DNA of 43,759 bases, taken from positions 1 through 43,759 of the forward strand of contig JBBSQZ010000001.1 of NCBI GenBank assembly GCA_038243565.1, read 5' to 3'. Within the stretch, counting starts at the first letter, position 1. Every line of letters begins with the position of its first letter. The notes beneath the pieces were generated by a model. The model ran no database searches. It worked only from the letters and a program-made list of their open reading frames with translations, and was not told where the DNA came from. A program made the position numbers and the translations under genes. This document shows, in pieces, positions 993 to 36,070 of the stretch. The DNA comes from Rhodothermales bacterium. Its GTDB lineage: Bacteria; Bacteroidota; Rhodothermia; Rhodothermales; Rubricoccaceae.

Positions 993-1090
993 AGGGTACA
1001 GGGGGAAGTGGAAATGCATGTCTACCTGCCGCTACGCTTTTACCTCGCTGTCTCTTCCACCTTTCAACCCTTTCCACCTTCAACCCTCCG
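993..1090. repeat. Heptad-periodic hairpin element (degenerate) filling the GMC-stop to GH1-start gap
   Basis: 5' arm gaagggtacagggggaagtggaaatgc. 3' arm cttccacctttcaaccctttccaccttcaaccctccg ends at the ATG at 1091. Confidence 0.55.
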
Positions 1091-2422
1091 ATGCCTTCCT
1101 TCCTCGACCTCGTCAAAGCCAAGAACGCCGACGGCTACGCGGGCGACCAGTACGGCGGCGGCGCCGGCCACGACGGCTCGGGCCTGCCGACGGGCGACGC
1201 CGGCAACTTCATGTTCGCGACGGGCATCGAGTGCTCCAACCCGACCATCAAGGGCGGGACCGTGCGCCGCGACCTGCTCGCCGAGTGCGGCCACTACGAC
1301 CGCTACAAGGAGGACCTCGGGCTGGTGAAAGAGATGGGCCTGAAGGTGCTGCGCTACGGCCTGCCGTACCCGGTCGTCGCGCGCCGCGAGGGCCGCTACG
1401 ACTGGGACTTCGCCGACGCCGCGATGGCCGAGATCAAGCGCCTCGGCATCACGCCGATCCTGGACCTGATGCACTTCGGCGTGCCGGACTGGATCGGCGA
1501 CTTCCAGAACCCGGACCTCCCGCTGCACTTCGCCAACTACGCCGCCGCCGTCGCCCGGCGCTACCCGTGGGTGCGCTTCTACACGCCCGTCAACGAGATC
1601 TACGTCACCGCTCGCGTCTCTGGGCTCGACGGCGTCTGGAACGAGCAGCTCAAGACGCACGAGGGATTCGTGACGGCCCTCAAGCACGCGACGGCCGCGT
1701 CCATCCTCGCCACGCAGCAGATCGCCAATCATCGGTCCGACTGCATCATCGTCCAGTCGGAGTCTGCCGAGTACCTCCACGAGGCCGTCGTCACGCCGTC
1801 CGACGAGACGCGCATCCACAACAAGATGCGCTTTCTCTCGCTGGACCTGCTCTACGCGAATCACCCCGACGCCGAGATGTACCAGTACCTCCTCGACAAC
1901 GGGATGACGCGCGCCGAGTACGACTGGTTCATGGCCGGCGAGCCGCCGGGCTACCAGGTCATGGGCAACGATTACTACGGCACGAACGAGCGCATCAAAC
2001 TGGCCGATGGCACCTTCTGCGAGGCGCAGGACGTGCTCGGGTGGTACCAGATCACGCACGAGTACGTCAAGCGGTATCGCAAGCCGGTGATGCACACGGA
2101 GACCAACCTTATGGACCCGGAGGAGGCCCCGGCGTGGCTCTGGAAGCAGTGGATGAACGTCCTCCGGATGCGCGAGGACGGCGTGCCCGTGCTCGGCTTT
2201 ACGTGGTACTCGCTCATCGACCAGGTGGACTGGGACATCGAGCTCGCCGAGGTCCGCGGCCATGTCAACCCGTGCGGCCTGTACGACATGGACCGCAAGA
2301 TCCGGCCCGTCGGCGAGCACTACAAGATGCTGCTCGAGCAGTTCGGCCAGATCACGATGGTCCCGCACGGCGAGCTGTTCGACATCACCGACCGCGAGGC
2401 GCGGCTGAAGGTGGAAGTCTGA
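1091..2422 (+). CDS. Glycoside hydrolase family 1-like protein
   Basis: The ATG at 1091 (MPSFLDLVKAK...) is in frame with track ORF 29..2422. It has TIM-barrel GH1-like motifs (YTPVNEIYV acid/base-like NE; HTETN nucleophile-like). The upstream part of the track ORF overlaps the GMC gene in another frame and looks non-coding. Confidence 0.6.
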   Translation: MPSFLDLVKAKNADGYAGDQYGGGAGHDGSGLPTGDAGNFMFATGIECSNPTIKGGTVRRDLLAECGHYDRYKEDLGLVKEMGLKVLRYGLPYPVVARREGRYDWDFADAAMAEIKRLGITPILDLMHFGVPDWIGDFQNPDLPLHFANYAAAVARRYPWVRFYTPVNEIYVTARVSGLDGVWNEQLKTHEGFVTALKHATAASILATQQIANHRSDCIIVQSESAEYLHEAVVTPSDETRIHNKMRFLSLDLLYANHPDAEMYQYLLDNGMTRAEYDWFMAGEPPGYQVMGNDYYGTNERIKLADGTFCEAQDVLGWYQITHEYVKRYRKPVMHTETNLMDPEEAPAWLWKQWMNVLRMREDGVPVLGFTWYSLIDQVDWDIELAEVRGHVNPCGLYDMDRKIRPVGEHYKMLLEQFGQITMVPHGELFDITDREARLKVEV

Positions 2423-2517
2423 ATGCAGTTTGGAGTTTGGAGAGGTCAGGCATCGCGCTCTGTCGATACGGAATGCCGCCATCTATCCCGCCTTCAAACT
2501 CCAAACTTCAAACTGCA
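2423..2517. repeat. Heptad-periodic hairpin element, GTTTGRA subfamily
   Basis: Arms are atgcagtttggagtttggagagg (2423-2445) and ccttcaaactccaaacttcaaactgca (2491-2517). They lie between convergent genes, and both stops sit in or adjacent to the arms. Confidence 0.85.
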
Positions 2518-2804
2518 CTTCCCACCTCCACGTGGCTGAGCGCGACCGGCGCGGCGGCGAAGAGCGGCGTCGTGCGCGCCCACGTCTCGCGGAAGAGGCC
2601 CGAGGCGCGGTAGGCGTCGAGCGCCTCGGGGCCGTCCCACAGGCTGACCGTCGTGAGGACGTTCGGGAAGCGCGGGTCCTGCCAGAGCTCGAGGCGCCGG
2701 CAGCCCGGCGCCGCGGCTATGCGGGCGCGCGTCTCGGCGAAGAGGGCGTGGAAGGCGTCGAGGCGGTCGGGCCGGAACGTCAGGCGGACGGTGCGGAGCA
2801 GCAT
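2508..2804 (-). CDS. ABM (antibiotic-biosynthesis-monooxygenase/Dabb-like) domain protein
   Basis: Internal Met (MLLRTVRLTFRPDRLDAFHALF...) of track ORF 2508..2849. About 98 aa, with the typical ABM size and beta-alpha-beta pattern. Its stop TGA lies inside a hairpin arm (GCAGTTTGA). Confidence 0.5.
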   Translation of the reverse strand: MLLRTVRLTFRPDRLDAFHALFAETRARIAAAPGCRRLELWQDPRFPNVLTTVSLWDGPEALDAYRASGLFRETWARTTPLFAAAPVALSHVEVGSAV

Positions 2805-2906
2805 CGGGAATCGAAATAGTGTGAACGGAGCACAGCCAATCCAGAGCATCGCCGACCCGTAGGGACACGGCGTGCCGTGTCCTCCTCCGCCCAGCGCGCC
2901 GCGCCG

Positions 2907-5965: not shown

Positions 5966-5974
5966 GGCGGGAGT

Positions 5975-6751: not shown

Positions 6752-6760
6752 GGGGAGGAA

Positions 6761-6885
6761 ATGCAGTTTGGAGTTTGGAGTTTGAAGGTTGGAGAGGTCC
6801 TGCTTGAGACGGAGTTTTCTTCAAACTGTTGGGCCACTGTGTTCCTACGTCCTCGCGCCTGTTCCCTCTCCAACCTTCAAACTGC
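6761..6885. repeat. Heptad-periodic hairpin element, GTTTGRA subfamily (intra-operon, batB stop to TPR start)
   Basis: Arms are atgcagtttggagtttggagtttgaaggttggagagg (6761-6797) and cctctccaaccttcaaactgc (6865-6885). Confidence 0.85.
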
Positions 6886-7917: not shown

Positions 7918-7918
7918 C

Positions 7919-8012
7919 GGGGGATTGGGAAATGGCGACTGGGAAATGGAGGGCTGGAGAGAGGCGGCGTTGCGTTCAGCCAGTCCCCACTTCCCATTTC
8001 CCAGTCCCCATC
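7919..8012. repeat. Heptad-periodic hairpin element, GGGAAAT subfamily (intra-operon, batA stop to batB start)
   Basis: 5' arm gggggattgggaaatggcgactgggaaatggagggctggagagagg. 3' arm cagtccccacttcccatttcccagtccccatc. Confidence 0.8.
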
Positions 8013-8988
8013 ATGGCACGCGCCGGAGCCGGGTGCTGGCGAGGACGGACGCGGCGAGGAGGCACAGCAGCGCGGGCCAGAGCGCCCACATGTACAGCTC
8101 CTCGACGTCCAGAAGAACGGTTTCGTCGATGCGGGTCTTCTCGAGCTCGCCGATGGCCGCGTAGATCGAGCGCAGCGCCTCGACGTCGGTCGCGCGGAAG
8201 TAGCGGCCGCCGGTCGTCTCGGCGACGGCGCGCAGCGTGGCCTCGTCGATCTGGGCGGGCGGGCCGCCGAGGAAGCCGCCGAAGGGGCCGGAGCCCGGGA
8301 GCGTCCCGCTGTCCGTGCCGACGCCGATGGCGTAGATGCGGACGCCGAGCGCGCGCGCCGCCTCGGCGGCCGTCTGCGGGTCGATCTGGCCGCGGTTGCT
8401 CTGGCCGTCGGTGAGCAGGATGATGACCTTCGAGGCGGCGTCCGAGTCGCGCAGGCGCGCCGCCGACGTCGCGATGGCGGTGCCGATGGCGGTGCCGTCC
8501 TCGATCACGCCCATCCGGACCTCGCGGAGCATCGTCAGCAGGAACGGGTAGTCCAGCGTCAGCGGCGCCTGCGTGTACGCCTGCGCCGCGAAGACGACGA
8601 GGCCGACGCGGTCCGACGTGCGGCCGCGGACAAACTCGGCGGCGACGGCCTTGGCCGCCTCGAAGCGGTTCGGCGGGAAGTCCTCGGCCGTCATCGAGGT
8701 CGACGCGTCGAGCGCGAGCATGATGTCGATGCCTTCCGAGGAGCGGGCGACGGACGCGTCGCGGCGCTGCGGCCGCGCCAGCGCGATCACGGCGAGCGCG
8801 AGCGCGGCCATCCGCAGCGCGCCGGGCAGCCAGCCGAGGCGCGCCCAGCCCGCCGCCGGCAGGCCCGCCGCGTCGCCCGCCGCCGAGAAGCGGACGCCCG
8901 GCGCTGCCCCACGCCCGCGCCGCGCGTGCCACGCGAGCGCGGGCACGGCGAGGAGCAGCAGGAGCCAGAGCGGCGAGGCGAAGGTCAC
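8011..8988 (-). CDS. batA: VWA-domain membrane protein BatA
   Basis: GTG start in a GTGA overlap with the upstream gene. MTFASPLWLL..., MIDAS motif DIMLALDASTSM, IILLTDGQSN, and a C-terminal TM. Confidence 0.8.
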   Translation of the reverse strand: MTFASPLWLLLLLAVPALAWHARRGRGAAPGVRFSAAGDAAGLPAAGWARLGWLPGALRMAALALAVIALARPQRRDASVARSSEGIDIMLALDASTSMTAEDFPPNRFEAAKAVAAEFVRGRTSDRVGLVVFAAQAYTQAPLTLDYPFLLTMLREVRMGVIEDGTAIGTAIATSAARLRDSDAASKVIILLTDGQSNRGQIDPQTAAEAARALGVRIYAIGVGTDSGTLPGSGPFGGFLGGPPAQIDEATLRAVAETTGGRYFRATDVEALRSIYAAIGELEKTRIDETVLLDVEELYMWALWPALLCLLAASVLASTRLRRVP

Positions 8989-9983
8989 GATGCGGAGGGC
9001 GGAGGGCGGAGAGCGGAGGGCGGCGGTGCTGAAGCAGGCGGCGGCGCTGGTACGGATGCGGCGGCCGCGCGCTCCGCCTCCAGGAGATGCGCCTCGACGG
9101 CGCCGACGGCCGTCCGCGCCTCCGTAGCCGCCTCGTCGGCGCGGGCGGGCGACGGCGCGATGCCGGCGTAGGCGACGAGGTCGGCGAGGGCGAGCACGCG
9201 GCGCGTGGCGTCGCGTGCGTCAGACGGGACGCGGGCGTCGTGGGCGAGGGCGGCGTCGATCTCGTCGGTCGTGGACTCGAGCGCGGGCAGGCCGAGGCGC
9301 CGGGCGAGGTAGACGCGCAGCGCCTCGCGGGCGCCGAGCGCGCGCTCGGTCGGGGACTCGGGCAGCGCGTCGAGCGCGGCCGTTGCCTCGGGGAACGGCT
9401 CGGTGCGGGGAAGGGCAGGACGGGCGCGGCGTTTCCAGCGCAGGAACAGCCATGCGCCGACGCCGGCGAGGACGAGGGCAAGCGCGCCGAGCGCGAGCCA
9501 CACGGGCAGCAGGCCGGGGAAATCGTCCGGCGGGCCGAGCGGCGCCGGCGTCGTGTCGCCGCCACGAATCAGGCTGCGGACGGGCAGGACGACGACGCCC
9601 GACGCGGCCGAGACGGTGTCGCGCCCGACGGCGAGGCGGACGGGGATCGGCCCGACACGCGCCGTGTCGACGGCGAAGACGGCGACCTCGTAGACCGCGC
9701 TGTCCGTGCGGATGCTCCCGCGCACGACGGGCGGCAGGCGCGTCACGGAGAACGCCTCGGCGTCGCCGAACGAGACGAGCGGGGCGGTCTCGGCGCTGCC
9801 GGCCGGCACGTCCGGGAAGACGGCCGACTGCCCGGGCCCGTGGTCCACGGCGACGGCGACGCGGACGCGCTCGCCGGGCGAGACGCTGTCCGCGAGGACC
9901 GTCAGCCGCGCCGGCCGCTGCGCCGCGGCGGCGCTCGGCAGCGCAGCCATCGCGCAGATCAGGGACAGGAAGCGCGTCGTCAT
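8985..9983 (-). CDS. Secreted/membrane protein, DUF4381-like (position typical between DUF58 and BatA)
   Basis: Signal peptide (MTTRFLSLICAMAALPSAAAAQ), a central TM (LLPVWLALGALALVLAGVGAWLFLRW) and a helical C-terminal half. ATGA overlap with DUF58. The last ~12 codons are encoded by a heptad repeat tract. Confidence 0.55.
   Translation of the reverse strand: MTTRFLSLICAMAALPSAAAAQRPARLTVLADSVSPGERVRVAVAVDHGPGQSAVFPDVPAGSAETAPLVSFGDAEAFSVTRLPPVVRGSIRTDSAVYEVAVFAVDTARVGPIPVRLAVGRDTVSAASGVVVLPVRSLIRGGDTTPAPLGPPDDFPGLLPVWLALGALALVLAGVGAWLFLRWKRRARPALPRTEPFPEATAALDALPESPTERALGAREALRVYLARRLGLPALESTTDEIDAALAHDARVPSDARDATRRVLALADLVAYAGIAPSPARADEAATEARTAVGAVEAHLLEAERAAAASVPAPPPASAPPPSALRPPPSAS
8992..9026. 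repeat. Tandem heptad tract (GCGGAGG)x5; on the minus strand it is C-rich and abuts the batA start
   Basis: gcggagg gcggagg gcggaga gcggagg gcggcgg. It also encodes the C-terminal [13 protein letters not shown] of the upstream ORF. Confidence 0.8.
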
Positions 9984-10870: not shown

Positions 10871-10873
10871 CTC

Positions 10874-10896
10874 GGACGGCGGAAGGCGGAGGGTTG
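10874..10896. repeat. Heptad tract (GGAnGGn)x3; on the minus strand it is C-rich and abuts the proposed DUF58 TTG start
   Basis: ggacggc ggaaggc ggagggt. It is the inverted complement of the purQ leader tract ~400 nt away. Confidence 0.6.
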
Positions 10897-11125
10897 ATGT
10901 TACGCGCGCGGCGCGGGCGCCTCGGTCCGGCCCGGCGCCTCGGGCGGCGCGTCGCAGTAGCTTGGCGGGGAAAGGCCCCCTGTCTCGCCGCGCGTGGGTC
11001 GTGCTGAGACGAGGCGCCGGCGTCGCGCGGCTCGCCTGTCCCCCTTGAAGCGGGGGCAGCTTGGATCGTGCTCGCCTCGTCGGTCCTCGCCTCGGACCTC
11101 CGGTCCGCCTCGACACAGAACCAAC

Positions 11126-11272
11126 GTCATCCCGAGCTTGTCGAGGGATCTCTGCCGACTCAGATGCCACGGAACAGCGCGCTGTCGAGGCGCCTCGCGC
11201 GGCAGAGATCCTTCGACTCCGTGGGCTGCGCCGGCCTTCGGCGCGCGCAGGCGCTCACGCCACTCAGGATGC
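11126..11272. repeat. Nested inverted-repeat element (MITE/REP-like)
   Basis: Outer arms gtcatcccgag ... ctcaggatgcc. Inner arms tcgagggatctctgcc (11141-11156) and ggcagagatccttcga (11201-11216). Confidence 0.6.
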
Positions 11273-11298
11273 CGGTGTAGTGGGGTCCGCGGCAGATT

Positions 11299-11324
11299 CC
11301 GCCCTCCGCCCTCCGCCCTCCGCC
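11299..11324. repeat. Tandem heptad tract (CCGCCCT)x3.7 ending at the purQ ATG
   Basis: ccgccct ccgccct ccgccct ccgcc, followed by ATG. Confidence 0.85.
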
Positions 11325-17254: not shown

Positions 17255-17488
17255 GCGCGCAAGCTAGGCGGCCGAGCGGCCGGCGTCTAGGAAGCGGCCG
17301 AAAAGACGGCGCCGCGGGATGCCGCGGCGCGATGATTCGAACGATGCGGAGCGCCTGACCTGTCCGTCTGCCGGGGCGCTCGGCGCGGAGCACGGTGAAC
17401 CGGGTGTGGTGCTCGGGCCGAGACGCGCCACCGGCGCTACGGCGGCGGCGGTGGACCGATCTTGTCCGCCTTGCCTTCCGTCCTTGCC

Positions 17489-18403: not shown

Positions 18404-18503
18404 GAGAGTTTGGAGTTTGAAGTTTGGGGAACGTGGAGTGGAGTGAAAGCAAGCCGTCCCGATGGTCGCACGGTCTACCACCTCTTCAAACTTCAAACTG
18501 CAT
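18404..18503. repeat. Heptad-periodic hairpin element, GTTTGRA subfamily (between convergent dapF and ubiE)
   Basis: Arms are gagagtttggagtttgaagtttgggg and cctcttcaaacttcaaactgcat. The ubiE stop is followed on its own strand by aatgcagtttgaag. Confidence 0.85.
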
Positions 18504-19236: not shown

Positions 19237-19395
19237 AGCGGGAGCGTATTCCAGTCGTGTGAGGGCGGAAACCTACCGTTCCGATGACCCTGCGGTGCCC
19301 GCCGAGGCGCGAACGCGAACGGAACGCACGTTGCTTTCAATGTTTTCTGAAACCTCCCGATGCCCGCCCGGTACCTTCCCGGCCTGTAGCTTCCC

Positions 19396-20850: not shown

Positions 20851-20853
20851 GCC

Positions 20854-22730: not shown

Positions 22731-23216
22731 ATGGGCCAGCAGCAGCTTCTCCTCCTCGTCGTCGTCATCGTCATCGTCGGCCTCGCGGTCGTCGTCGGCA
22801 TCCAGCAGTTTGGCGAGGGCCGTCAGAAGGCCGACATCGACCGCCTGACGGTCGAGGCGGTCCGCATGGCGACCGGCGCGAGCGCGTGGCGATCGACGCC
22901 CGTGGCCATGGGCGGCGGCAAGGGCGACGCCTCGTTTGCCCGTTTCAGCCTCGCCAACCTCGGCTTCAGCAATGCGAGCGTGGTGGGCAACGGCGAGATC
23001 TCCGCCGACGCGACGACCATCCGCTCGGTCTGGAATCGGGATAGCCCGGTGACCTACATCTCGGTCGCCAACGCGGCCTACGACGCCGAGGCGCAGATCT
23101 ACCTCTACGGGCCGGGCCCGAACTGCCTCGCCGCCCGGACCCGCCGGACGGTCGGCGGGGCAGAGGTCTTCGCGCCCGCCGAGGCGCCGCCGCAGCCGCC
23201 GGGCTGCACGTGGTAG
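22731..23216 (+). CDS. Hypothetical membrane-anchored protein with pilin-like architecture
   Basis: The N-terminus MGQQQLLLLVVVIVIVGLAVVVGIQQF is a single hydrophobic helix, followed by a ~130-aa soluble domain with two Cys near the C-terminus (GPNC...PPGC). No recognisable men function. Coding status rests on ORF length and position only. Confidence 0.45.
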   Translation: MGQQQLLLLVVVIVIVGLAVVVGIQQFGEGRQKADIDRLTVEAVRMATGASAWRSTPVAMGGGKGDASFARFSLANLGFSNASVVGNGEISADATTIRSVWNRDSPVTYISVANAAYDAEAQIYLYGPGPNCLAARTRRTVGGAEVFAPAEAPPQPPGCTW

Positions 23217-23258
23217 GAGGAGAGAACTGGGAAATGGCGACCGGGAAACGGGGGCTGG
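23217..23258. repeat. Half element (5' arm only), GGGAAAT subfamily
   Basis: ggaggagagaactgggaaatggcgaccgggaaacgggggctgg closely resembles the 5' arm at 7919-7963. No clear complementary arm precedes the menH ATG. Confidence 0.55.
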
Positions 23259-23283
23259 CCGGAGCGCCTCGGTAGCTTCCGGG

Positions 23284-24954: not shown

Positions 24955-24958
24955 GTGC

Positions 24959-25057
24959 GGGGGAAATGGGGAACGGGGAATGGGGAATGGGAACTGCACG
25001 TCCGCAGGCCGAGGCTCATCCCTCGCCGGTCCCCAGTTCCCAGTCCCCAGCCCCCAG
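24959..25057. repeat. Heptad-periodic hairpin element, GGGGAAT subfamily (menB stop to menA)
   Basis: 5' arm gggggaaatggggaacggggaatggggaatgggaactg. 3' arm cggtccccagttcccagtccccagcccccag. Confidence 0.8.
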
Positions 25058-25943
25058 CCGCCCGGCGGCCGTCCTCGTCTGGCTCTCCGCGGCGCGGCCC
25101 AAGACGCTGCCTGCCGCCGCGGCGCCGGTCGTGCTCGGGACGGCCTTCGCGTGGGCAGACGGCGCGCACCATGCCGCGGCCGCGGCGTGCGCGCTCGCCG
25201 CGGCGCTGCTGATCCAGGTCGGGACCAACTTCGCCAACGACGCCGAGGACTTCGCCCGCGGGGCGGACACCGCGGCGCGCGTCGGGCCGAAGCGGGCCGT
25301 CAACGAGGGCTGGGTGACGGCGGCCGGGATGCGCCGCGCCGCGGCGCTCGCCTTCGGCGCGGCGTTCGCGTCGGGCCTGGTCCTCGTCTGGCGCGGCGGC
25401 CTGCCCGTCCTCGCCCTCGGGCTGGCGGCGATCGCGTCGGGGGTCGCGTACACGAGGGGCCGCTACGCGCTGGCGTACACCGGCCTCGCGGACCTGTTCG
25501 TGCTCGTGTTCTTCGGCCCCGTCGCCGTCGGCGGGACGTACTTCGTGCAGGCGCTCGCGCTGCCGCCCTCCGTGCTCGTCGCCGGGCTCGGGCCGGGCGC
25601 GCTCGCGACGGCCATCCTCGTCGCCAACAACGTCCGCGACGTGGAGCAGGACCGCGCAGCGGGCAAGCGGACGCTCGTCGTGCGCCTCGGCCGCCCGTTC
25701 GGCGTCGGGCTGTACGGGCTGTGCTTCATCGTGGCATTCGGCGCCACGGTCTATGCCATCGTCACGTCGGGTGGACATGTGGGCGCGTGGGCGGCGGCGG
25801 TGGTCGCGCTCGTCGGCGGGCTCGTGCTGCGGCCCGCGCTGAGGCGATCGCACGGCGTAGCGGCGGCGCCGATCCTCGGCAAGACGGCGGCCGTGCTGAT
25901 GCTCTACGCGCTCACCTTCGCCCTCGGCTGGGTACTGACGTGA
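24987..25943 (+). CDS. menA: 1,4-dihydroxy-2-naphthoate polyprenyltransferase
   Basis: WLSAARPKTLPAAAAPVVLG, UbiA-type NDAEDFARGAD, and polytopic. The only in-frame ATGs upstream of the conserved core are 24966 and 24987, and both lie inside the hairpin element. The start is uncertain. Confidence 0.8.
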   Translation: MGTARPQAEAHPSPVPSSQSPAPSRPAAVLVWLSAARPKTLPAAAAPVVLGTAFAWADGAHHAAAAACALAAALLIQVGTNFANDAEDFARGADTAARVGPKRAVNEGWVTAAGMRRAAALAFGAAFASGLVLVWRGGLPVLALGLAAIASGVAYTRGRYALAYTGLADLFVLVFFGPVAVGGTYFVQALALPPSVLVAGLGPGALATAILVANNVRDVEQDRAAGKRTLVVRLGRPFGVGLYGLCFIVAFGATVYAIVTSGGHVGAWAAAVVALVGGLVLRPALRRSHGVAAAPILGKTAAVLMLYALTFALGWVLT

Positions 25944-25987
25944 TGGGGGGAATGCCCGGGCATCGTGCTGAGGCGCGGCGTCGTGCT

Positions 25988-26015
25988 GAGACGCCCCGGC
26001 GGGGCGTCTCTACGG
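25988..26015. repeat. REP-like palindrome with CTAC tail
   Basis: gagacgcccc-ggc-ggggcgtctc followed by tacgg. The same unit recurs at 43478-43510 and inverted at 43329-43353. Confidence 0.75.
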
Positions 26016-26022
26016 GTGGGAC

Positions 26023-27018: not shown

Positions 27019-28379
27019 TCCCGGACCCGATCCGCGCGCAGGCCGACGCGCATCCCGACGCCGCGGCCGTCGTCACCGACGCAGGCACGTGGACGTGGGA
27101 GGACCTCGACGCCCGCGTCGCGGCCTGCGCCGCCCGCCTCGAGGAGTCGGGCGAGGCGCGTGTCGCCGTCGTCTCGCGGCCGAGCGCCGAGTTCGTCGTG
27201 CTGCTGTTTGGGGCACTCCGCGCGGGCGCTTTGCTCGTGCCACTCGCGCCGCGCTGGCCGGCCGCCGCGGTCGAGGAGACGGCGCAGCGCCTCGGCCTTC
27301 GCCTTGTGCTGGGCGAGGCTGACCTTGGCGAGATCGCACGTCCGGGCAGGGCAGCGAAGAGGCCCGTGCCTCCGATCGAGGCGTCGCAGCCGTGGACCGT
27401 CGTCCACACGTCCGGCACGTCGGGCGAGCCGAAGGCCGTGCTGCACACGGCGGGCAACCACGCGGCGAGCGCGCGCGGCGTGAGCGCGCGCCTCGGCCTG
27501 CGGGCCGGCGACACGTGGCTCCTCGACCTCCCGATGCACCACGTTGGCGGACTGGGCATGGCCGTGCGGTGCGCTCTCGCTGGCGCCGCGATGGCGATCC
27601 CCGCGCCCGGGACGGGCACGGCCGAGGCGCTCCGCCGCTTCCGCCCGACGCACGCGTCGCTCGTCTCGACACAGCTCTTCCGCCTGCTCCGCGACGACCC
27701 CGCCGCCGGCGCAGGGCTCCGCGCGATCCTGCTCGGCGGCAGCGCCATCGCCCCCGGTCTCCTCGACGCCGCCGTCGACGCCGGCCTGCCCGTGTGCATC
27801 GGCTACGGGATGACCGAGGCGACCTCGACCGTCACGATGACTGCGCCTGGCGCAGACCGCGCGGCGCTCGACACCTCCGGTACCGTCCTGCCCGAGCGCG
27901 AACTCCGCATCGCGGCGGACGGCGAGATCGAGATCCGCGGCGCGACGCTCGCTGCTGGCACGCTCACGGACGCGGGGCTCGTGCCGCTGCCGCTCACGCC
28001 CGACGGCTGGTTCCGCACCGGCGACCGCGGGGCGCTCGACGCCACGGGGCGCCTCGTCGTGGCCGGGCGCGTGGGCAACGGGTTCGTCTCGGGCGGAGAG
28101 AACGTGCAGCCCGAGGCCGTCGAGGCCGCGCTGGCGCGACGTCCCGGCGTCGCCGAGGCCGTCGTGGTGCCCGTGCCGAGCGCCGAGTGGGGCGCGCGCC
28201 CCGTCGCCTTCGTCCGCCCGAGCGGCGCCGCGCTGCCGGACGGCCTGCGCGAGGCGCTCCGCGAGACGCTCCCGCCGCACGCCGTCCCCGTCGCGTTCAT
28301 CCCGTGGGACGGGCCCGACGGCATGAAGCCGGACCGGCGAGGGCTGGCAGAGGTAGCCCAAAGGCGGTTTAAGGTTTAA
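27015..28379 (+). CDS. menE: o-Succinylbenzoate-CoA ligase
   Basis: The ATG overlaps the menC stop (ATGA). AMP-binding motifs HTSGTSGEPKAV, GYGMTE, TGDRG. The stop TAA lies inside the AT-rich hairpin arm. Confidence 0.9.
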   Translation: MIPDPIRAQADAHPDAAAVVTDAGTWTWEDLDARVAACAARLEESGEARVAVVSRPSAEFVVLLFGALRAGALLVPLAPRWPAAAVEETAQRLGLRLVLGEADLGEIARPGRAAKRPVPPIEASQPWTVVHTSGTSGEPKAVLHTAGNHAASARGVSARLGLRAGDTWLLDLPMHHVGGLGMAVRCALAGAAMAIPAPGTGTAEALRRFRPTHASLVSTQLFRLLRDDPAAGAGLRAILLGGSAIAPGLLDAAVDAGLPVCIGYGMTEATSTVTMTAPGADRAALDTSGTVLPERELRIAADGEIEIRGATLAAGTLTDAGLVPLPLTPDGWFRTGDRGALDATGRLVVAGRVGNGFVSGGENVQPEAVEAALARRPGVAEAVVVPVPSAEWGARPVAFVRPSGAALPDGLREALRETLPPHAVPVAFIPWDGPDGMKPDRRGLAEVAQRRFKV

Positions 28380-28427
28380 CGTTTAAGGAATGGCTACACC
28401 ACCCTTAAACATTAAACCTTAAACCGC
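28364..28427. repeat. AT-rich heptad-periodic hairpin (near-perfect 25-bp stem) between convergent menE and ppiD
   Basis: Arms are gcggtttaaggtttaacgtttaagg and ccttaaacattaaaccttaaaccgc, with a 14-nt loop. The menE TAA is inside the 5' arm. Confidence 0.9.
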
Positions 28428-28432
28428 ATTTC

Positions 28433-30517: not shown

Positions 30518-30853
30518 TGCACGTCCGCCGGAGCGGTGGAAAGTCTTGAAACGCGACGGGGCCGGCACCCGGAGGTCCCGGCCCGCAGAGTCGGCCAAGC
30601 TAACCCCGACGGGGGGCACCCCCCGGGGGAAAAATCCGCGCAGACCCGCGGCGCGCGCCGAGGCGCGCTCGGGCTATCGGTACGTCCGGTCGAGGATGGC
30701 CGAGGCGGGCTGCGGCGCGGTCCGGGCGAGCCAGACGACCGAGGCGAGGCAGGCGACGCCGACGGCGGCGAGGAGCGAAGGCGACATGGGGACGCAGGGC
30801 GTGTGGGTTCCCCGGCATCGGCCATCACCCCTCCGCACAGGCCGTTCGGCCAT

Positions 30854-31417
30854 TCAGCCGCCCATTTCGTCGCGTTCGTCTCGGTAAAACGGGTTCGATT
30901 CGGGCACGTCGAGCCCCAGGTACATCCTGGACATGCGGACGTAGTGGGCGGCGTTGGCCCGGTTCCGCTCCACCTCGGCGTCCGTCAGCGCCCGCACGAC
31001 GCGCGCCGGGCTGCCGATGACGAGCGACCGCGGCGGCACGACGGTGTTCATCGTCACGAGCGCGCCCGCCCCGACGATCGACCCGGCCCCGATCACGGCG
31101 CCGTCCAGCACGACGGCGCCCATCCCGATGAGGACGTCGTCCTCGACCGTGCAGCCGTGGACGACGGCGTTGTGCCCGACGGTCACGCCCGCCCCGAGGC
31201 GGCACGGGTGCGTCCCGCGCGAGACGTGGACGGTCGCGCTGTCCTGCACGTTCGACCCCGGCCCGATCTCGATCCAGTGCACGTCGCCGCGCAGCGAGGC
31301 GCCGTACCACACGCTCGCGCCGTCGCCGAGCGAGACGTCGCCGACGACGGCGGCCGTGGGGGCGATGAAGACGTCCGCGCCGAGGCGCGGCGCGCGGCCG
31401 AGGAAGGGGAGGGTCAT
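30854..31417 (-). CDS. Gamma-class carbonic anhydrase family / hexapeptide-repeat protein
   Basis: MTLPFLGRAPRLGADVFIAPTAAVVGDVSLGDGASVWYGASLRGD...HGC... is a left-handed beta-helix hexapeptide pattern. It is the C-terminal part of a 1210-aa chimeric shadow ORF in the track. Confidence 0.85.
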   Translation of the reverse strand: MTLPFLGRAPRLGADVFIAPTAAVVGDVSLGDGASVWYGASLRGDVHWIEIGPGSNVQDSATVHVSRGTHPCRLGAGVTVGHNAVVHGCTVEDDVLIGMGAVVLDGAVIGAGSIVGAGALVTMNTVVPPRSLVIGSPARVVRALTDAEVERNRANAAHYVRMSRMYLGLDVPESNPFYRDERDEMGG

Positions 31418-31455
31418 GGTGGATGGTGGATGGTGGATGGTGGATGGTGGATGGT
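31418..31455. repeat. Perfect tandem heptad tract (GGTGGAT)x5; on the minus strand CCATCCA x5 abuts the gamma-CA ATG
   Basis: Five exact copies span 31418-31452, and the start codon is at 31415-31417 on the minus strand. Confidence 0.9.
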
Positions 31456-31618
31456 TTGACGAGGCGCTGCGGTTTGTTCCGGCGTCCTGCCTGGCGGGGC
31501 GGGTAGCGGCTCCTCCGGGGATTCGGCTGGGTCTGGGGAATCGGACGAGCGCGGCGTCTCGGCGGGCGGCACATCGCGGCGCCCGTATCTTGCACCACTT
31601 CTCCGCCTTCTGCCGCCC

Positions 31619-32197
31619 ATGTCCGTCGCCCTGACCGCCGCTCGCCCCGCTGCCCTGGACCGCCTCCGCGCGGCCGACCTGCCGCTCGCGGCGCAGATCG
31701 CCTCCATCGCCGGCGCGGCGCTCCTCGTGGCGCTGCTCGCGCAGGCGGAGGTCCGGCTCTACCTCTGGGAGGTCCCGCTGACGCTCCAGACGCTCGCCGT
31801 CTACGGGACGGGCCTCGTGCTCGGCCGCCGCAACGGCGTCCTCGCGATGGGCCTCTACCTGCTGATGGGCCTCGCGCTGCCCGTCTTCGCCGGCGGCGAG
31901 ACCGGCCTGGCGCACCTCTTCGGCGCGACGGGCGGCTACCTCCTCGCGTTCCCGCTCGTCGCCTTCGTCGGCGGGGCGCTGACAGAGCGCACGCGGACGT
32001 TTCCGCGCGCGATGCTCGCGCTCCTCGCCGGCTCGGTGGTCCTGTTCACGCTCGGCGTCGTCGTGCTGCACTCCGTGAGCGGGACGCTCTCGTGGACGGC
32101 CGCCGCCGAGATGGGCTGGCTCCGGTTCGTCCCGTGGGACATGGCCAAGATCGGGACCGTCGCCGCGGCGTACGCCGCCGCCCGCCGCGCGGCCTGA
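31619..32197 (+). CDS. bioY: Biotin transporter BioY (ECF S-component)
   Basis: PLTLQTLAVYGTGLVLGRRNG...GLALPVFAGG...GATGGYLLAFPL is the BioY signature. 192 aa and polytopic. Confidence 0.85.
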   Translation: MSVALTAARPAALDRLRAADLPLAAQIASIAGAALLVALLAQAEVRLYLWEVPLTLQTLAVYGTGLVLGRRNGVLAMGLYLLMGLALPVFAGGETGLAHLFGATGGYLLAFPLVAFVGGALTERTRTFPRAMLALLAGSVVLFTLGVVVLHSVSGTLSWTAAAEMGWLRFVPWDMAKIGTVAAAYAAARRAA

Positions 32198-32223
32198 CCC
32201 GCCGTCTTCTGCCCGTCTTCTGC

Positions 32224-32260
32224 GAAACGTCCGCCTCCCGGGGTGGGCGTTTCGCGTTTC
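32224..32260 (+). terminator. Putative intrinsic terminator after bioY
   Basis: A 12-bp stem (gaaacgtccgcc / ggtgggcgtttc, with two G-U pairs) and a 6-nt loop, followed by gcgtttc. Confidence 0.4.
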
Positions 32261-32335
32261 GGGCCGCCTCGTTACCCGCCCGGCACGATCGGCGGCCTTC
32301 TGATCGTCCTCCCCGTCCACACGTCCCCCGCTCCG

Positions 32336-33025
32336 ATGCGCCTCCCCCTTCTCCTGCTCACGCTCCTCGCGCTGCCCGCCTGCGATTCGTACAACAACGG
32401 CTACGACGACGGCTACGGCGATGGCCAGGGCAACGCCCCGACCAGCACCGCGACGTTCGCCGACTTCTCGCTCGACGCGACGCGGTACGACGTGAGCGAT
32501 GACAACCGCACGGCGACGTTCCGGTCGCGCAACATCTCGTCGATCGACACGCGCAACGCCGTTGAGCGGGCGCTCGCGACGGCTGGCGACGGCGCGCTCG
32601 TGATGCTCTACATCAAGAACTACCTCGTCAGCGACCAATCCTCTCCGACTCAAACTGCCCCGACGTACTCGGCGCTCCCGATCTCGCGTGGCTTTGACGA
32701 GCAGCTCGTGACCACGACGAACCCGGACGGGACCCCCGGCTCGCCGGTCTACGTCGTCGGGCTGACGGCGTCCTACGAGTTCTCGTTCGACAATGGGGAC
32801 CTCTACTTCGACGTGGTCTCTTCCAAGCCGTCGACCGACTTTGGAAGCAACCCGGAGTCCCTGTTCAACATCATCATTCCGCAGGAGACACTTGCAGACG
32901 GCAGCGGCCGCCTCGACCGCCTCGAGTTCCGCCTCGTCACCGTCCCCGCCCGCGCCGGCCAGCGCCCCGCCGTCGACATGACGGACTACGCGGCCGTCGC
33001 CCGCGCCTACAACCTGCCGGACTGA
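32336..33025 (+). CDS. Hypothetical lipoprotein
   Basis: MRLPLLLLTLLALPAC has a lipobox (LPAC). 229 aa. Visibly less GC-biased codon usage than its neighbours. Followed by a canonical terminator. Confidence 0.6.
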   Translation: MRLPLLLLTLLALPACDSYNNGYDDGYGDGQGNAPTSTATFADFSLDATRYDVSDDNRTATFRSRNISSIDTRNAVERALATAGDGALVMLYIKNYLVSDQSSPTQTAPTYSALPISRGFDEQLVTTTNPDGTPGSPVYVVGLTASYEFSFDNGDLYFDVVSSKPSTDFGSNPESLFNIIIPQETLADGSGRLDRLEFRLVTVPARAGQRPAVDMTDYAAVARAYNLPD

Positions 33026-33046
33026 CGCCGCCTCGCGCCGCGCGTT

Positions 33047-33081
33047 CGCCCCGCCTCGGACCTCCGGGGCGGGGCGTTTTT
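33047..33081 (+). terminator. Intrinsic terminator after the lipoprotein gene
   Basis: A perfect 9-bp GC stem (cgccccgcc / ggcggggcg) and a 12-nt loop, followed by ttttt. Confidence 0.7.
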
Positions 33082-33142
33082 GCGCACGGACGGAACGCCG
33101 CGCGGCGTTCCGGGTGAGCCTGCCACACGACGCCACGCCGCG

Positions 33143-34237
33143 ATGACTTTCCAGTATTCCGAGTGGGACGACGCCCGCCACGGGCAGGAGCGCACCACCT
33201 TCGACACGCTCTTCGACCTCTTCCAGCAGCTCCTCATGCACACCGGCGGCGACGCCGACGAGGCGCTCCGCTGGCTCACCGCCGTCGACACGCAGTACGG
33301 CCTCTCGGACGAGGGCATGGGCCTCGGCGACTTCATCGAGGAGCTCAAGAACCGCGGCTACGTCGAGCGCGACGAGCAGACCGGCGCCGTCCAGATCACC
33401 GGCAAGACGACGCGCGGCCTGCGCGAGCGCTCGCTCGAGGAGATCTTCGGCCAGCTCGCCAAGGCCGGCCGCGGCGCCCACAAGACGCCCTTCGCCGGCA
33501 CCGGCGACGAGCGCCAGCCCGAGACGCGCGCCTACTCCTTCGGCGATTCGGTCGCGGACCTCGACGTCACCGCGACGCTCTCCAACGCCTTCCGCCGCGG
33601 CGGCGACTTCTCGCTCGAGCAGGACGACTTCGAGGTCTTCGAGACGGACCACCACACGTCCGTCGCGACCGTCCTGATGATCGACCTCTCGCACTCGATG
33701 GTCCTCTACGGCGAGGACCGCATCACGCCCGCGCGCAGGACAGCGCTCGCCCTCGCCGAGCTCATCACGACGAAGTACCCCAGGGACACGCTGGACATCG
33801 TGGCCTTCGGCGACGACGCGTGGGAGGTCGAGATGAAGGACCTGCCGTTCCTCCAGGTCGGCCCGTACCACACCAACACGCGCGCCGGGCTCGAGCGCGC
33901 CCGCACGATCCTCAAGCGCCGAAAGAACCGCAACAAGCAGATCTTCATGATCACCGACGGCAAGCCGTCCGCCCACTTCGTCGACGGGCGGCTGTACAAG
34001 AACCCGTACGGGCTGGACCGGCAGATCGTGAACAAGGTCCTGGACCAGGGCGCGATGGCGCGCCGCGAGGGCATCACGATCACGACGTTCATGATCGCCC
34101 GCGACCCGGCGCTCCAGGACTTCGTGCGCCAGCTCACCGAGACGAACAAGGGCCGCGCCTACTACTCGCGCCTCGACGACCTGGGCGGCTTCCTGTTCGA
34201 GGACTACGTCCGCAACCGCCGCAAGACGGTGCGGTAG
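33143..34237 (+). CDS. VWA-domain protein (cytoplasmic, orphan)
   Basis: MIDAS-like MIDLSHSM, FMITDGKPS, ITITTFMIA. The ATG at 33143 is in frame with the track ORF. Confidence 0.65.
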   Translation: MTFQYSEWDDARHGQERTTFDTLFDLFQQLLMHTGGDADEALRWLTAVDTQYGLSDEGMGLGDFIEELKNRGYVERDEQTGAVQITGKTTRGLRERSLEEIFGQLAKAGRGAHKTPFAGTGDERQPETRAYSFGDSVADLDVTATLSNAFRRGGDFSLEQDDFEVFETDHHTSVATVLMIDLSHSMVLYGEDRITPARRTALALAELITTKYPRDTLDIVAFGDDAWEVEMKDLPFLQVGPYHTNTRAGLERARTILKRRKNRNKQIFMITDGKPSAHFVDGRLYKNPYGLDRQIVNKVLDQGAMARREGITITTFMIARDPALQDFVRQLTETNKGRAYYSRLDDLGGFLFEDYVRNRRKTVR

Positions 34238-34254
34238 GGAATATGGGCAACGAC

Positions 34255-34297
34255 GAACGGCCATCGGGGAATGCACTCCCGATGGCCGTTCTCGTTT
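34255..34297 (+). terminator. Putative intrinsic terminator after the VWA gene
   Basis: A perfect 14-bp stem (gaacggccatcggg / cccgatggccgttc) and a 9-nt loop, followed by tcgttt. Confidence 0.55.
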
Positions 34298-34406
34298 GCC
34301 CCCGCCGTTTCCCGATGCCCGTTGGTCTTTCCCGGCCGAGCGCACGCAGCGCCTCGGTCCGCCGCTGGCCGCGTCGTACGTTCGCGGCACCCTGACGCAC
34401 GCCGAC

Positions 34407-35144
34407 ATGCCCGCCACCGCCCGCCCGACGTCTCGCCCGTCCCGCGCGACGCCGCCCCGCACCGAGGCGCGTCCTGCGCCGAGCACGGAGCCGACGACCG
34501 CGACGCCAGCCGAGGCGCTCGAGGAGACGCCGTACGCGCGCTACCTCCGGACGCTCCCCGATGGCCTCAAAGCCGACCTCATCCGCGGCGAAGCCGTCAT
34601 CGACATGTCCGCCAGCGTCGCTCACGAGCTCATCTTCGGCTTCCTCTACACGCTGCTCAAGCTCTACGTCGAGGAGCGCGGGCTCGGCGTCGTGCTCGGG
34701 TCGCGGACGCTGATGCGCGTCGATGACGAGAACGGATACGAGCCCGACCTGCTCTTTGTCCGGGCCGAGCGCCTCGGCATCATCGGCGACGTGGATGTGA
34801 GCGAGCGCGTGGACCTCGCCGTCGAGATCGTCTCGCGGACGTCGGGCCGGCGCGACCGAGAGACCAAGTTCGAGGGCTACGAGCGCCTCGGCGTGCCCGA
34901 GTACTGGCTCATCGACCCGCTGCGCGGCGAGGCGACGTTCTACGCGCTCGGCGACGACGGCACCTACCGCGCGACCCCGCTCGATGCCGGCGTCTTCGCG
35001 AGCCGCGAGCTTCCCGGCTTCCGCCTCGACCCGCAGGTTCTCTTCGGCGAGACGCTCCCGCCCGTGCTGCCGCTGCTCACCGCCCTGCTCGCCGAGCCGA
35101 TGCCCGAGGCGCCGAACGCCGCAGAAGACCCCGACGCCGCGTGA
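34407..35144 (+). CDS. Uma2-family (DUF820) putative endonuclease
   Basis: YEPDLLFV...DLAVEIVS...D...K...Y...GVPEYWLIDP is the PD-(D/E)xK-like Uma2 signature. It has a Pro/Thr-rich N-terminal tail. Confidence 0.75.
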   Translation: MPATARPTSRPSRATPPRTEARPAPSTEPTTATPAEALEETPYARYLRTLPDGLKADLIRGEAVIDMSASVAHELIFGFLYTLLKLYVEERGLGVVLGSRTLMRVDDENGYEPDLLFVRAERLGIIGDVDVSERVDLAVEIVSRTSGRRDRETKFEGYERLGVPEYWLIDPLRGEATFYALGDDGTYRATPLDAGVFASRELPGFRLDPQVLFGETLPPVLPLLTALLAEPMPEAPNAAEDPDAA

Positions 35145-36040
35145 GCGTCCGTCCCAAAAAGCGCCTCGGGCAGCACTTCCTGGCCGACCCGGCCATCGTG
35201 CAGGCCATCGCGGAATCCGTCCACGTCCCGCCGGGTGGGCGCCTCGTCGAGATCGGGCCTGGCGAGGGCGTCCTGACGGCCGAGCTGCTGCGCCGCTTCC
35301 CGGACCTCGTCGCCATTGAGGTCGACCCCGAGGCCGTCGCGCACCTCCGCGCCCGTTTTCCTGGATTGGACCTCCGCGAGGCGGACGTGCTGGATGTGGA
35401 CTGGGGGGCGGTGAAGGAGGACGGGTCGGAAAAGGAAGGAGGAAAAAGGGGAGCGGGAAACGCATGCCTGTCTTCCCCTTCCCCACTTCAACCCTCCCAC
35501 CCCTCAACCCCGCTCACCGTCGTCGGCAACCTGCCGTACTACATCACGTCGCCGATCCTGTTTGCGCTGCTCGATGCCCGCGCGCACGTCGGGCAGGCCG
35601 TGGTGATGGTGCAGAAGGAGGTCGCGGATCGCTTGGTGGCGCCGCACGGCTCGAAGACGTACGGGACGCTCTCGGTCTACTTCCAGCTGTTCGCCCGCGC
35701 GCGGAAGCTCTTCGACGTGCCGCGGCACGCGTTCCGCCCGCCGCCGAACGTCGAGAGCGCCGTGATCGACGTCGACTTCTCGGTGGAGGCGCCGGACGTG
35801 CCGTTCGAGGCGCTCCAGCGGGTCGTGAAGGCGGCCTTCGGGCAGCGCCGCAAGATGTTCCGCAACAGCGTCGCGCCGCTCTTCGCCTCGGCAGGCCGCA
35901 CGATGCCCGAGCGCTTCGAGACGCTCCGCCCCGAGGCCGTCCCGCCCGAGGAATTCGTCGCCCTCGCGCAGGCGCTCGAGGGGGCCGACGGGCAAATGCA
36001 GGAGACAGAAGGCAGAGGACAGAGGACGGACGACAAATAG
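35141..36040 (+). CDS. rsmA: 16S rRNA (adenine1518/1519-N6)-dimethyltransferase RsmA/KsgA, carrying an internal ~33-codon insertion
   Basis: KKRLGQHFL, VEIGPGEGVLT, VVGNLPYYITSPI. The GTG start overlaps the Uma2 stop (GTGA). The insertion at 35414..35512 has hairpin-element composition. Confidence 0.9.
   Translation: MSVRPKKRLGQHFLADPAIVQAIAESVHVPPGGRLVEIGPGEGVLTAELLRRFPDLVAIEVDPEAVAHLRARFPGLDLREADVLDVDWGAVKEDGSEKEGGKRGAGNACLSSPSPLQPSHPSTPLTVVGNLPYYITSPILFALLDARAHVGQAVVMVQKEVADRLVAPHGSKTYGTLSVYFQLFARARKLFDVPRHAFRPPPNVESAVIDVDFSVEAPDVPFEALQRVVKAAFGQRRKMFRNSVAPLFASAGRTMPERFETLRPEAVPPEEFVALAQALEGADGQMQETEGRGQRTDDK
35405..35515. repeat. Hairpin-element-like sequence embedded in frame in rsmA
   Basis: A purine-rich half (ggtgaaggaggacgggtcggaaaaggaaggaggaaaaaggggagcgggaaacgcatgc) is followed by a pyrimidine-rich half (ctgtcttccccttccccacttcaaccctcccacccctcaaccccgctcacc). 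cttcaaccctcc is shared with the element at 1054-1090. Confidence 0.6.
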
Positions 36041-36070
36041 ATTCCGTCCTCCGTCCTCCGTCCTCCGTCC
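36011..36070. repeat. Heptad-periodic hairpin element (rsmA end to mgtE ATG)
   Basis: The 5' arm ggcagaggacagaggacggacgac lies inside the rsmA C-terminus. The loop aaatagatt contains the stop. The 3' arm (CCGTCCT)x3.9 ends at the ATG at 36071. Confidence 0.8.

Follow-up and report, generated by a model that had tools for sequence, protein, structure and literature searches.

Extragenic palindromes with heptanucleotide-repeat arms in a member of the Rubricoccaceae (Rhodothermales)

Introduction

Tandem arrays of seven-nucleotide units (heptads) occur in several bacterial groups as simple sequence repeats (SSRs), and here we report a set of them, over half paired in hairpins, in 43,759 nucleotides of a Rhodothermales bacterium of the family Rubricoccaceae (GenBank assembly GCA_038243565.1, contig JBBSQZ010000001.1, positions 1 to 43,759, forward strand; this whole stretch is referred to as the window). 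Heptameric SSRs are over-represented in bacteria according to the survey of Mrazek (2007), as cited in PMC4692102 and PMC4679880, and tandem heptanucleotides had been noted in the cyanobacterium Calothrix before that survey (cited in PMC4692102). Rehm et al. (2015, PMC4692102) described intergenic heptamers, with the unit GGGAATC in Xanthomonas and with GGGGA(C/T)T in Nostoc. In Xanthomonas, 70–75 sites per genome carry convergent inverted GGGAATC pairs with stem-loop potential; the length of the arrays varies between Xcc and Xac, their single or inverted type is kept, and no function could be assigned to them (PMC4692102). TAACTGA arrays lie just before start codons in Beggiatoaceae, cyanobacteria and five Bacteroidetes (MacGregor 2015, PMC4679880), where they differ by indels in 7-nt steps and are missing in the closest relatives (PMC4679880). 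Regulatory effects have been attributed to heptamer repeats near recF and recO (Nostoc preprint). A slippage hypothesis for heptamer SSRs is already published (PMC4692102, PMC4679880); the repeats are still without an accepted origin or function, and our literature search found no paper on heptamer repeats in Rhodothermales, Salinibacter or Rubrivirga.

We conclude that the heptad elements of the window (Table 1) belong to this described but poorly understood kind of SSR, its inverted-pair form included, and that they are new for Rhodothermales. An initial annotation had recognised the hairpins and matched them to no described repeat class; that view does not stand, since heptameric SSRs, inverted GGGAATC pairs among them, are documented (PMC4692102). 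The likeness to the repeats of Rehm et al. extends to tandem 7-nt units, an intergenic bias, convergent stem-loop pairs, an orientation rule set by the proximal open reading frame (ORF), scarcity between divergent genes, and variation of length and sequence among relatives with the type kept. The units GGGGAAT, GGGAAAT and GGGGACT also occur here (E4, E9 and E10). One heptad dominates in Xanthomonas and in Nostoc, however, whereas the 44-kb window holds at least six unrelated ones; G-quadruplex (G4) potential is exceptional here (3/19 arms); and hairpins are here the majority form, placed exactly between stop and start codons, former 4-nt overlaps included.

As in the TAACTGA system, arrays lie a few nucleotides before start codons, the same position being taken by E5–E7 and E12, show 7-nt indels and are missing from the nearest relatives; in contrast to that system, which uses one heptad in sense, many heptads are found and it is always the C-rich strand that is sense. 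The short tandemly repeated repetitive (STRR) sequences of Calothrix and Nostoc are likewise intergenic tandem heptamers with several units per genome, but they are described mainly as direct arrays, in low-GC filamentous cyanobacteria. The C arm of E10 matches STRR units of the CCCCAGT type. We favour, as probable rather than secure, the explanation that the heptad elements are extragenic palindromes with heptanucleotide SSR arms, which arose by slippage and arm-to-arm copying and act as transcribed stem-loops in the manner of repetitive extragenic palindromic (REP) sequences.

Period-7 arrays in non-coding DNA

The heptad repeat system of the window is real and statistically solid. Exact runs of at least nine matches were counted in 3.9 kb of curated non-coding sequence and in 300 dinucleotide-preserving shuffles; lag 7 gave seven runs, where the shuffles averaged 0.07 and never exceeded 1, and lags 4–6, 8–10 and 12 gave none at the same threshold. 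Tandem 7-nt units thus stand above chance and above other unit lengths. The non-coding bias is strong (7 runs in 3.9 kb against 1 in 39.9 kb of coding sequence, where lags 6, 9 and 12 dominate, as expected). Moreover, the sole coding case, at 8992, is the tail of an ORF running into the batA leader. Tandem Repeats Finder (TRF) identifies 13 genuine arrays of period 7; its array starts are included in Table 1.

Hairpins and single arrays

Complementary heptad arms form true hairpins at seven loci (E2, E3, E4, E8, E10, E11 and E13). Their arms are 19–30 nt long and 80–100% complementary, and in RNA folding against 100 dinucleotide shuffles at least one strand of each has a z-score in the range −2 to −10. 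Hairpins had been claimed at no fewer than nine loci, with heptads that differ between loci, arms that match within a locus and no T-run. The diversity of the heptads and the matching of the arms are borne out, and no heptad hairpin has a T-run, though the window does hold canonical T-run terminators at other places. The number of hairpins is smaller than was claimed: beside the seven true ones, the loci at 8992, 10874, 11299, 23217 and 31418 are single arrays adjoining a start or stop codon, with z about 0 where folded, and the locus at 993 is weak and not 7-periodic. The sense strand of E12 is unstructured, with a minimum free energy of 0 in RNA folding. The TRF periods and fold z listed in Table 1 do not support E1 as a member of the family. 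The arrays at 10874 and 11299 were also considered as the arms of one hairpin, and this was rejected: 400 nt of a divergent spacer separate them, and they serve as leaders of two different genes. The place of that GC-rich spacer, 454 nt long, is taken by a yceI gene in the relatives L167 and L171, and the spacer may be the remnant of a lost gene.

The stop-to-start span first ascribed to the elements applies to most of them and fails at 36011 (E13), where the upstream ksgA ORF continues across the G arm, stops only within the loop and is about 15 codons longer than in the relative L001 (35995–36040). At E10, an in-frame ATG at 24966, in the G arm, would extend the N-terminus of MenA by 30 residues (24966–25130). 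ORFs thus run through arrays and shift the called starts and stops (the 3′ end of ksgA, the 5′ end of menA, the tail of ORF 8985–9983), and gene boundaries beside arrays are unreliable.

Table 1. Heptad elements and other features of the window. Fold z is given for the + strand/− strand; TRF entries are array starts.
Feature	Position	Strand	Composition	Gene context	Fold z	TRF	Same site in a relative and in the window
E1	993–1090		degenerate G-arm/C-arm spacer	GMC-oxidoreductase stop (992) to GH1 start (1091)	−0.5	period 9/16 (3′ arm)	
E2	2423–2520		AGTTTGG arm 2424–2446, CAAACTY arm 2493–2517; outer motif AATGCAG	between convergent GH1 and ABM genes	−6.2/−4.6	2427/2495	
E3	6761–6883		AGTTTGG/AGGTTGG; fully complementary core 19 nt	batB stop (6877) to batC-like start (6751), − strand genes	−0.9/−3.5	6765	L169: GTGA overlap; window: 125-nt element
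E4	7918–8010		93 nt, GGGAAAT/GGGGACT, bounded by duplicated ATGA	batA stop to batB start	−5.5/−4.3	7986	L169: CCATGACCTTCCGC, ATGA overlap; window: CCATGA-(93-nt hairpin E4)-ATGACCTTCCGC
E5	8992–9023	−	sense CCGCCCT ×4.6	right before batA GTG (8988); overlaps ORF 8985–9983 at its 3′ end	0	8992; score 57	L169: single CCGCGCCCTCTCC-GTG; window: about five heptads
E6	10874–10895	−	weak 3-unit array, C-rich sense leader CCCTCCGCCTTCCGCCGTCC; no partner arm	before DUF58 TTG (10870), divergent spacer			
E7	11298–11324	+	TCCGCCC ×3.9	right before purQ ATG (11325)		11298; 100% match	
E8	18404–18500		AGTTTGR; outer motif AATGCAG on − strand	between convergent dapF and ubiE/menG	−2.5/−1.6	18406/18484	
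E9	23217–23260	+	G-rich GGGAAAT-type array	right after stop of ORF 22731–23216	−0.3		
E10	24955–25059		GGGGAAT/CCCCAGT; canonical G4 motifs in both arms	menB stop (24954) to conserved part of menA	−2.2/−1.9	24961/25029	
E11	28360–28431		GGTTTAA/CCTTAAA; arms 29 nt, 93% complementary; outer motif AATGCGG on − strand	between convergent menE and ppiD	−10.1/−8.3	28366/28403	L173: ordinary non-heptad 16-bp hairpin after ppiD; window: GGTTTAA hairpin
E12	31416–31455	−	sense CCATCCA ×5.7	right before hexapeptide-transferase ATG (31417)		31416; score 80, 100% match	L173: non-repetitive C/T-rich leader; window: (CCATCCA)×5.7
E13	36004–36070		G arm GGACAGA 36004–36034; C arm TCCGTCC ×4	G arm in 3′ end of ksgA ORF; C arm ending at mgtE ATG (36071)	−5.2/−7.3	36004/36043	L001: GATCTTCCGCCC-ATG; window: GATTCCGTCC(TCCGTCC)×3-ATG plus complementary G arm upstream
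AATGCRG motifs	2422, 6760, 18498(−), 28424(−), 35995			at outer ends of G arms			
Leader boxes	17455–17488, 19375–19395, 23265–23283, 31585–31618						also L001–L031 upstream of mgtE
Stem + T-run terminators	33047–33076, 30651–30636, 17330–17309			none at a heptad hairpin			
Divergent spacer	10871–11324			DUF58/purQ			
CCGTAGAGACGCCCCGSCGGGGCGTCTCTACGG palindromes	25985–26015, 43330–43357, 43472–43506						
Segment absent from relatives	34238–35145		ordinary 24-bp hairpin 34245–34301, no T-run	Uma2-family gene 34407–35144			
tRNA-Pro(GGG) call	816–902			within GMC-oxidoreductase ORF (3–992)			
mgtE	36071–37447						

Orientation of the arrays and the outer motif

The arrays are strand-asymmetric. 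Most arms have 0–2 C on their G-rich strand and the GC-richest (E5 and the G arm E13a) as many as 6, and the complement is correspondingly G-poor; owing to this asymmetry a single arm cannot fold on itself. In all 19 arrays the 5′ end of the G-rich strand lies at the neighbouring gene boundary, regardless of gene direction, so that the sense strand is G-rich after stop codons and C-rich before start codons, and paired arrays are therefore always G-arm-first, read on either strand. This order is seen in 7/7 hairpins of the window and in 7/7 at other Rhodothermales loci; the 14 are thus convergent G-strand-first pairs of the kind described by Rehm et al., in which the G strand lies nearest the 5′ neighbouring ORF. 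Hairpins occur only between co-directional (E3, E4, E10 and E13) or convergent genes (E2, E8 and E11), and divergent spacers contain single arrays only.

A universal G-first rule was considered and is rejected, since in other high-GC metagenomic taxa the AGTTTGG arrays are C-arm-first in 9/9 cases among the matches listed, with AGTTTGGAG in sense before an ATG. A metagenome scan with TGCAGTTTGRAGTTTGRAG returned at least 120 contigs, of G+C content 0.27–0.71 among the matches listed, most of which have further AGTTTGN units alongside; the AGTTTGG heptad is therefore used by many unrelated bacteria. The contigs L047–L166 contain AGTTTGG, AGTTTGA or AGTTTGC arrays across the same range among the matches listed. 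In several listed contigs of high-GC soil type the arrays are sense-oriented right before an ATG, with C-arm-first pairs and with GGAG every 7 nt, resembling repeated Shine–Dalgarno sites.

The motif AATGCRG occurs six times in the window, five of them precisely at a G arm's outer end and across three heptad types, and it also adjoins arrays in the relatives L174, L175 and L014. At four of the five sites (E2, E3, E8 and E11) its complement, CYGCAUU(U), follows the C arm directly in the sense of the upstream gene. AATGCRG was considered as the −7 promoter box of Bacteroidetes and does not fit TAnnTTTG, the consensus of that element.

Ordinary leaders, without arrays, resemble the single arrays in make-up, with a GATCTTG, TATCTTG or TAGCTTC box, then a C/T-rich, G-poor stretch of 5–30 nt, then the start codon. 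This conserved box, which resembles the −7 promoter element of Bacteroidetes, is probably this lineage's version of that element, giving very short leaders or none. Boxes of similar appearance are CAGATTCC, which lies just upstream of E7, and TAGATTCC in the loop of E13.

Comparison with relatives

Orthologous regions were reached via homologues of BatB and PpiD, and the mgtE junctions via homologues of MgtE. An exact look-up of the window's MgtE protein gave no recorded match. A protein-pattern search returned MgtE relatives from metagenome-assembled genomes (MAGs) of Rubricoccaceae/Rhodothermales only, the nearest, at 92% identity, being MFD02581.bin.2.159 (L001). In the nearest relatives (89–92% protein identity) the heptad element is missing at 6/6 testable sites. 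Among these relatives, L169 and L173 belong to the MUNK22-1 population. The genes at the E4 site share a plain ATGA overlap in L169 and L170, whose BatB is 89% identical, and the E3 site is empty, with a GTGA overlap, in L169, L167 and L171. Before the mgtE ATG, L001 has a single TCCGCCC and no hairpin. Overall, heptad loci number 13 in the 44 kb of the window against 0 in 21 kb of L001.

In more distant relatives (about 72–75% identity) these junctions are occupied by hairpins that have heptad arms. L175 carries after ppiD the same AATGCGGTTTAAGG element in another copy number, and L174 has a GGTTGAG hairpin there. Between menB and menA the units are GGGATAC/CATCCCG in L174 and GGGGAAT/CCCCAGT in the window, and both elements start TGAG(T)GCGGGGG. 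After mgtE, significant hairpins are found in L014, L007, L005 and L023, with units GGTACGG, CGTGATG, GTGGRRC and GCCAGTG, and the site is empty in L027 and L002. The purQ gene is preceded by a C-rich heptad array in the window and likewise in Rubrivirga marina and Rubricoccus marinus, the unit being different in each of the three. These heptad swaps at the ppiD, menB–menA and mgtE junctions agree with the original proposal that the structure and the 7-nt period are conserved rather than the sequence.

This comparative material is unusually clean, with sites lacking the heptad element at about 90% protein identity, an insertion placed exactly at a 4-nt overlap and exchanged heptads. It makes selection on the hairpins, the upkeep of arm likeness and the co-distribution of genes with array-rich genomes (this one, L014, L009 and L174) testable, in a new lineage, Rubricoccaceae, that has the cultured relatives Rubrivirga marina and Rubricoccus marinus.

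Origin of the elements

Comparison with relatives suggests that replication slippage lengthens and shortens the arrays 7 nt at a time. In E3 the G arm exceeds the C arm by two units (14 nt), and E2 and E3 likewise differ by 14 nt; L103 and L117, which represent one metagenomic locus, have three and five units, and the E11-type elements of the window and L175 differ in arm length. Copy number thus varies in unit steps between relatives or copies, and the perfect arrays E7, E12 and the C arm of E13 look recent. The single C-rich arrays before start codons would have grown in place from the native leader, which is C/T-rich and G-poor, since E5, E12 and the C arm of E13 face single-copy or non-repetitive sequence in relatives. 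For E5 in particular, in situ expansion follows from the single CCGCGCCCTCTCC before the GTG in L169.

The arms would stay alike through inverted copying of a whole arm (template switching within a quasi-palindrome), through selection for pairing, or through both. Quasi-palindrome template switching is established in Escherichia coli. In E11 a variant unit occupies the equal stem position in both arms, so that the order of units is mirrored, and the shorter arm of E3 equals the longer one minus two units. The slippage and fold-back copying put forward in the initial annotation fit both the 7-nt-step copy differences and this mirrored order. The two arms of E13 have each been homogenised separately (ACAGAGG and ACGGAGG), and within-arm slippage is therefore faster than between-arm exchange.

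The hairpins, again judging from the relatives, would reach gene junctions as ready-made copies, and at one site or more the 4-nt overlap of stop and start codon appears to have been duplicated, leaving both genes intact (ATGA-(93 nt)-ATGA in the window and ATGA in L169). Sub-families that share sequence are found, namely E2/E3/E8, with AATGC-(AGTTTGR)n-AGAGGT in common, and E4/E9/E10; an arm of E4 shares about 31 of 34 nt with E9 (23228–23260), an irregular GGCGAC unit included.

Such copies raise the question of mobile elements. MITEs (miniature inverted-repeat transposable elements) or REPIN-like units, moved by a REP-associated tyrosine transposase (RAYT)/IS200-type or other nuclease encoded elsewhere, would account for the clean insertion between duplicated ATGA at batA/batB, for near-identical arm segments at distant loci (E4/E9; E2/E3/E8), for the conserved outer motif (at 5/6 of its window occurrences and in L174, L175 and L014), and for the contrast of 13 loci with none in the nearest-relative sequence sampled; the heptads would then be the internal make-up of sub-families. 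We nevertheless hold this to be unlikely. At least six unrelated heptads in 44 kb offer no single REP/MITE-like consensus, the single arrays clearly derive from local leader sequence, the duplication is present at one site only, where selection would require one anyway, and the window is without a transposase.

As to the MITE class, the arms act as inverted repeats, and a target duplication (ATGA) is seen only at E4, none being clear at E3 or at the sites downstream of mgtE. With REP sequences and bacterial interspersed mosaic elements (BIMEs) the hairpins share an imperfect palindromic form, placement in transcribed co-directional or convergent spacers, variable presence and a likely role as generic RNA stem-loops. 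REPs differ in having one consensus with a 5′ GT(A/G)G, a RAYT transposase and arms that are not tandem repeats. The window elements, unlike REP/REPIN, have no single conserved palindromic consensus, only the sub-families sharing sequence; among the window's genes no RAYT (IS200/IS605-like) transposase is found. CRISPR arrays, built of identical 24–48-nt repeats with unique, similar-sized spacers between them, were rejected, the units here being contiguous 7-mers with one loop per element, and Rfam 15 gives no match at gathering score in the whole window.

A second dispersed palindrome, CCGTAGAGACGCCCCGSCGGGGCGTCTCTACGG, is present in three copies (Table 1). It has a 5′ GTAG as in REP elements, is not heptad-periodic and is separate from the heptad hairpins; L016 has a similar sequence upstream of mgtE.

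Function of the hairpins

On the explanation by slippage, copying and transcription, the hairpins would be transcribed as intercistronic stem-loops of 19–30 bp or as stem-loops of the 3′ untranslated region, because they lie only between co-directional or convergent genes; this is its weakest step. A REP-like action is then probable, in which generic stem-loops would buffer or protect the upstream mRNA 3′ end or pause RNA polymerase, and the hairpins would not be sequence-specific signals. Many of them are probably near-neutral and short-lived, given the decayed copies and the absence from close relatives. Stems begin 0–3 nt past the stop codon and mostly end 1–10 nt before the start codon; by bringing the stop codon and the following start codon together, the stem base might keep translation coupled when an element is inserted into an ATGA overlap.

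Several points weigh against this explanation. RNA folds give no consistent advantage to the sense strand, the antisense strand being the better one in E13 and E4, and RNA-level selection on the sense strand was rejected as neither G–U versus A–C mismatches nor +/− fold energies show a consistent asymmetry. After mgtE, the spacers of L006 and L011 look decayed (z +1.2), which fits neutrality as well as function. The REP-like role, though probable, is one that we infer. Furthermore, the G-first rule is lineage-specific, being reversed in other high-GC taxa, and slippage alone does not explain it; no transposase is encoded in the 44-kb window to account for dispersal; and the 7-nt unit length is left unexplained.

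The hairpins might instead be bidirectional, T-run-less terminators or attenuators of a GC-rich lineage, their G-first layout selected for termination efficiency. Three of the seven lie between convergent genes and none between divergent ones, the nearest relative has an ordinary 16-bp hairpin at the convergent ppiD/menE junction, and the CYGCAUU(U) following the C arm at four of the five window AATGCRG sites may be a rudimentary U-tract. We consider this doubtful all the same, as canonical stem-plus-T-run terminators occur elsewhere in the window (Table 1) and at none of the heptad hairpins, where the C arm is followed at most by ATT(T), so that they do not belong to the intrinsic terminator class. 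Four hairpins, moreover, lie inside operons (bat, men) in which the genes of relatives overlap and full termination would be harmful, and for this reason too we do not class them as terminators.

A role in translation, which we rate as quite unlikely, would make the C-rich, G-free arrays unstructured leaders or binding sites of the S1/Csp type, with operon hairpins keeping stop and start together; it assumes a lineage independent of Shine–Dalgarno sequences. Arrays abut eight starts (1091, 6751, 7917, 8988, 10870, 11325, 31417 and 36071), native non-repeat leaders are also short, C/T-rich and G-poor, and the purQ leader is a C-rich array in all three genera; the placing of the stems close behind stops and mostly close before starts points the same way, and a similar role was proposed by MacGregor for TAACTGA repeats (PMC4679880). 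The orientation rule, however, is independent of the direction of the neighbouring gene and G arrays also follow stops at convergent ends, the stem of E3 ends 27 nt ahead of the start codon, and the geometry is automatic if the inserted element is the whole spacer.

Two proposals look to a dedicated process for the 7-nt unit. The heptads could be made and homogenised by a strand-symmetric DNA-level process shared by array-rich lineages (Rhodothermales, Xanthomonas and cyanobacteria), for example a repair or priming polymerase adding or copying G-rich heptads 5′ to 3′ into a break, or a nuclease targeting stop/start overlaps. The chance of this being correct is small; if true, it would explain the fixed 7-nt unit, the G strands pointing into the spacer and the contrast of 13 loci with none. 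A mechanism bound to a 7-nt register, in which a modular nucleic-acid-binding factor or a specialised polymerase/primase reads or writes heptads, appears very unlikely. It would accord with the enrichment of period 7 alone, the recurrence of the unit length in cyanobacteria, Xanthomonas, Beggiatoaceae and many metagenomic taxa (G+C 0.27–0.71 among the matches listed) and a strand-symmetric G-first rule, which suggests a DNA-level process. Yet the heptads are highly diverse, with only GG and strand asymmetry in common, no candidate gene was found, the orientation rule is reversed in other taxa, and polymerase slippage favoured at 7 nt, already published (Mrazek 2007 as cited in PMC4692102), calls for no further factor. 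The modular factor had been the second suggestion of the initial annotation; nothing here points to it, the diversity of the heptads being too great and several arrays simply expanding the local leader sequence.

That the arrays are G4 or i-motif elements, as proposed for the Xanthomonas GGGAATC and Nostoc GGGGAYT repeats, is scarcely credible as a general property and was rejected as such, for although GGGAATC/GGGGAYT-type repeats form G4 in vitro (PMC4692102) and canonical (G3+N1–7)×4 motifs are found in both arms of E10 and one arm of E4, these are only 3 of 19 arms with four or more G3 tracts, most heptads (AGTTTGG, GGTTTAA, ATGGTGG, GGACAGA) have GG only, and the G arm is paired within the hairpins.

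Other features of the window

The window has a G+C content of 74%, and its gene map was drawn from a gene call based on G+C at third codon positions (GC3) together with Pfam. It begins with a GMC-oxidoreductase fragment, GH1 and the ABM gene, followed by the bat operon on the − strand (BatD, two unknowns, BatB, BatA, an unknown and DUF58), purQ, a glycosyltransferase cluster and dapF. The menaquinone operon (menF, D, H, B, A, C and E) comes next, and then ppiD, bioY, ksgA, mgtE and a Wzz-type kinase; no transposase is among the genes so called. About 900 nt (34238–35145) are missing from L001, L002, L003, L029 and L030, and this segment, with its ordinary hairpin (Table 1), carries the gene of a putative Uma2-family endonuclease inserted between a VWA gene and ksgA. 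Finally, the tRNA-Pro(GGG) called by ARAGORN is probably a false positive, the GMC-oxidoreductase ORF that contains it having a GC3 of 0.97.

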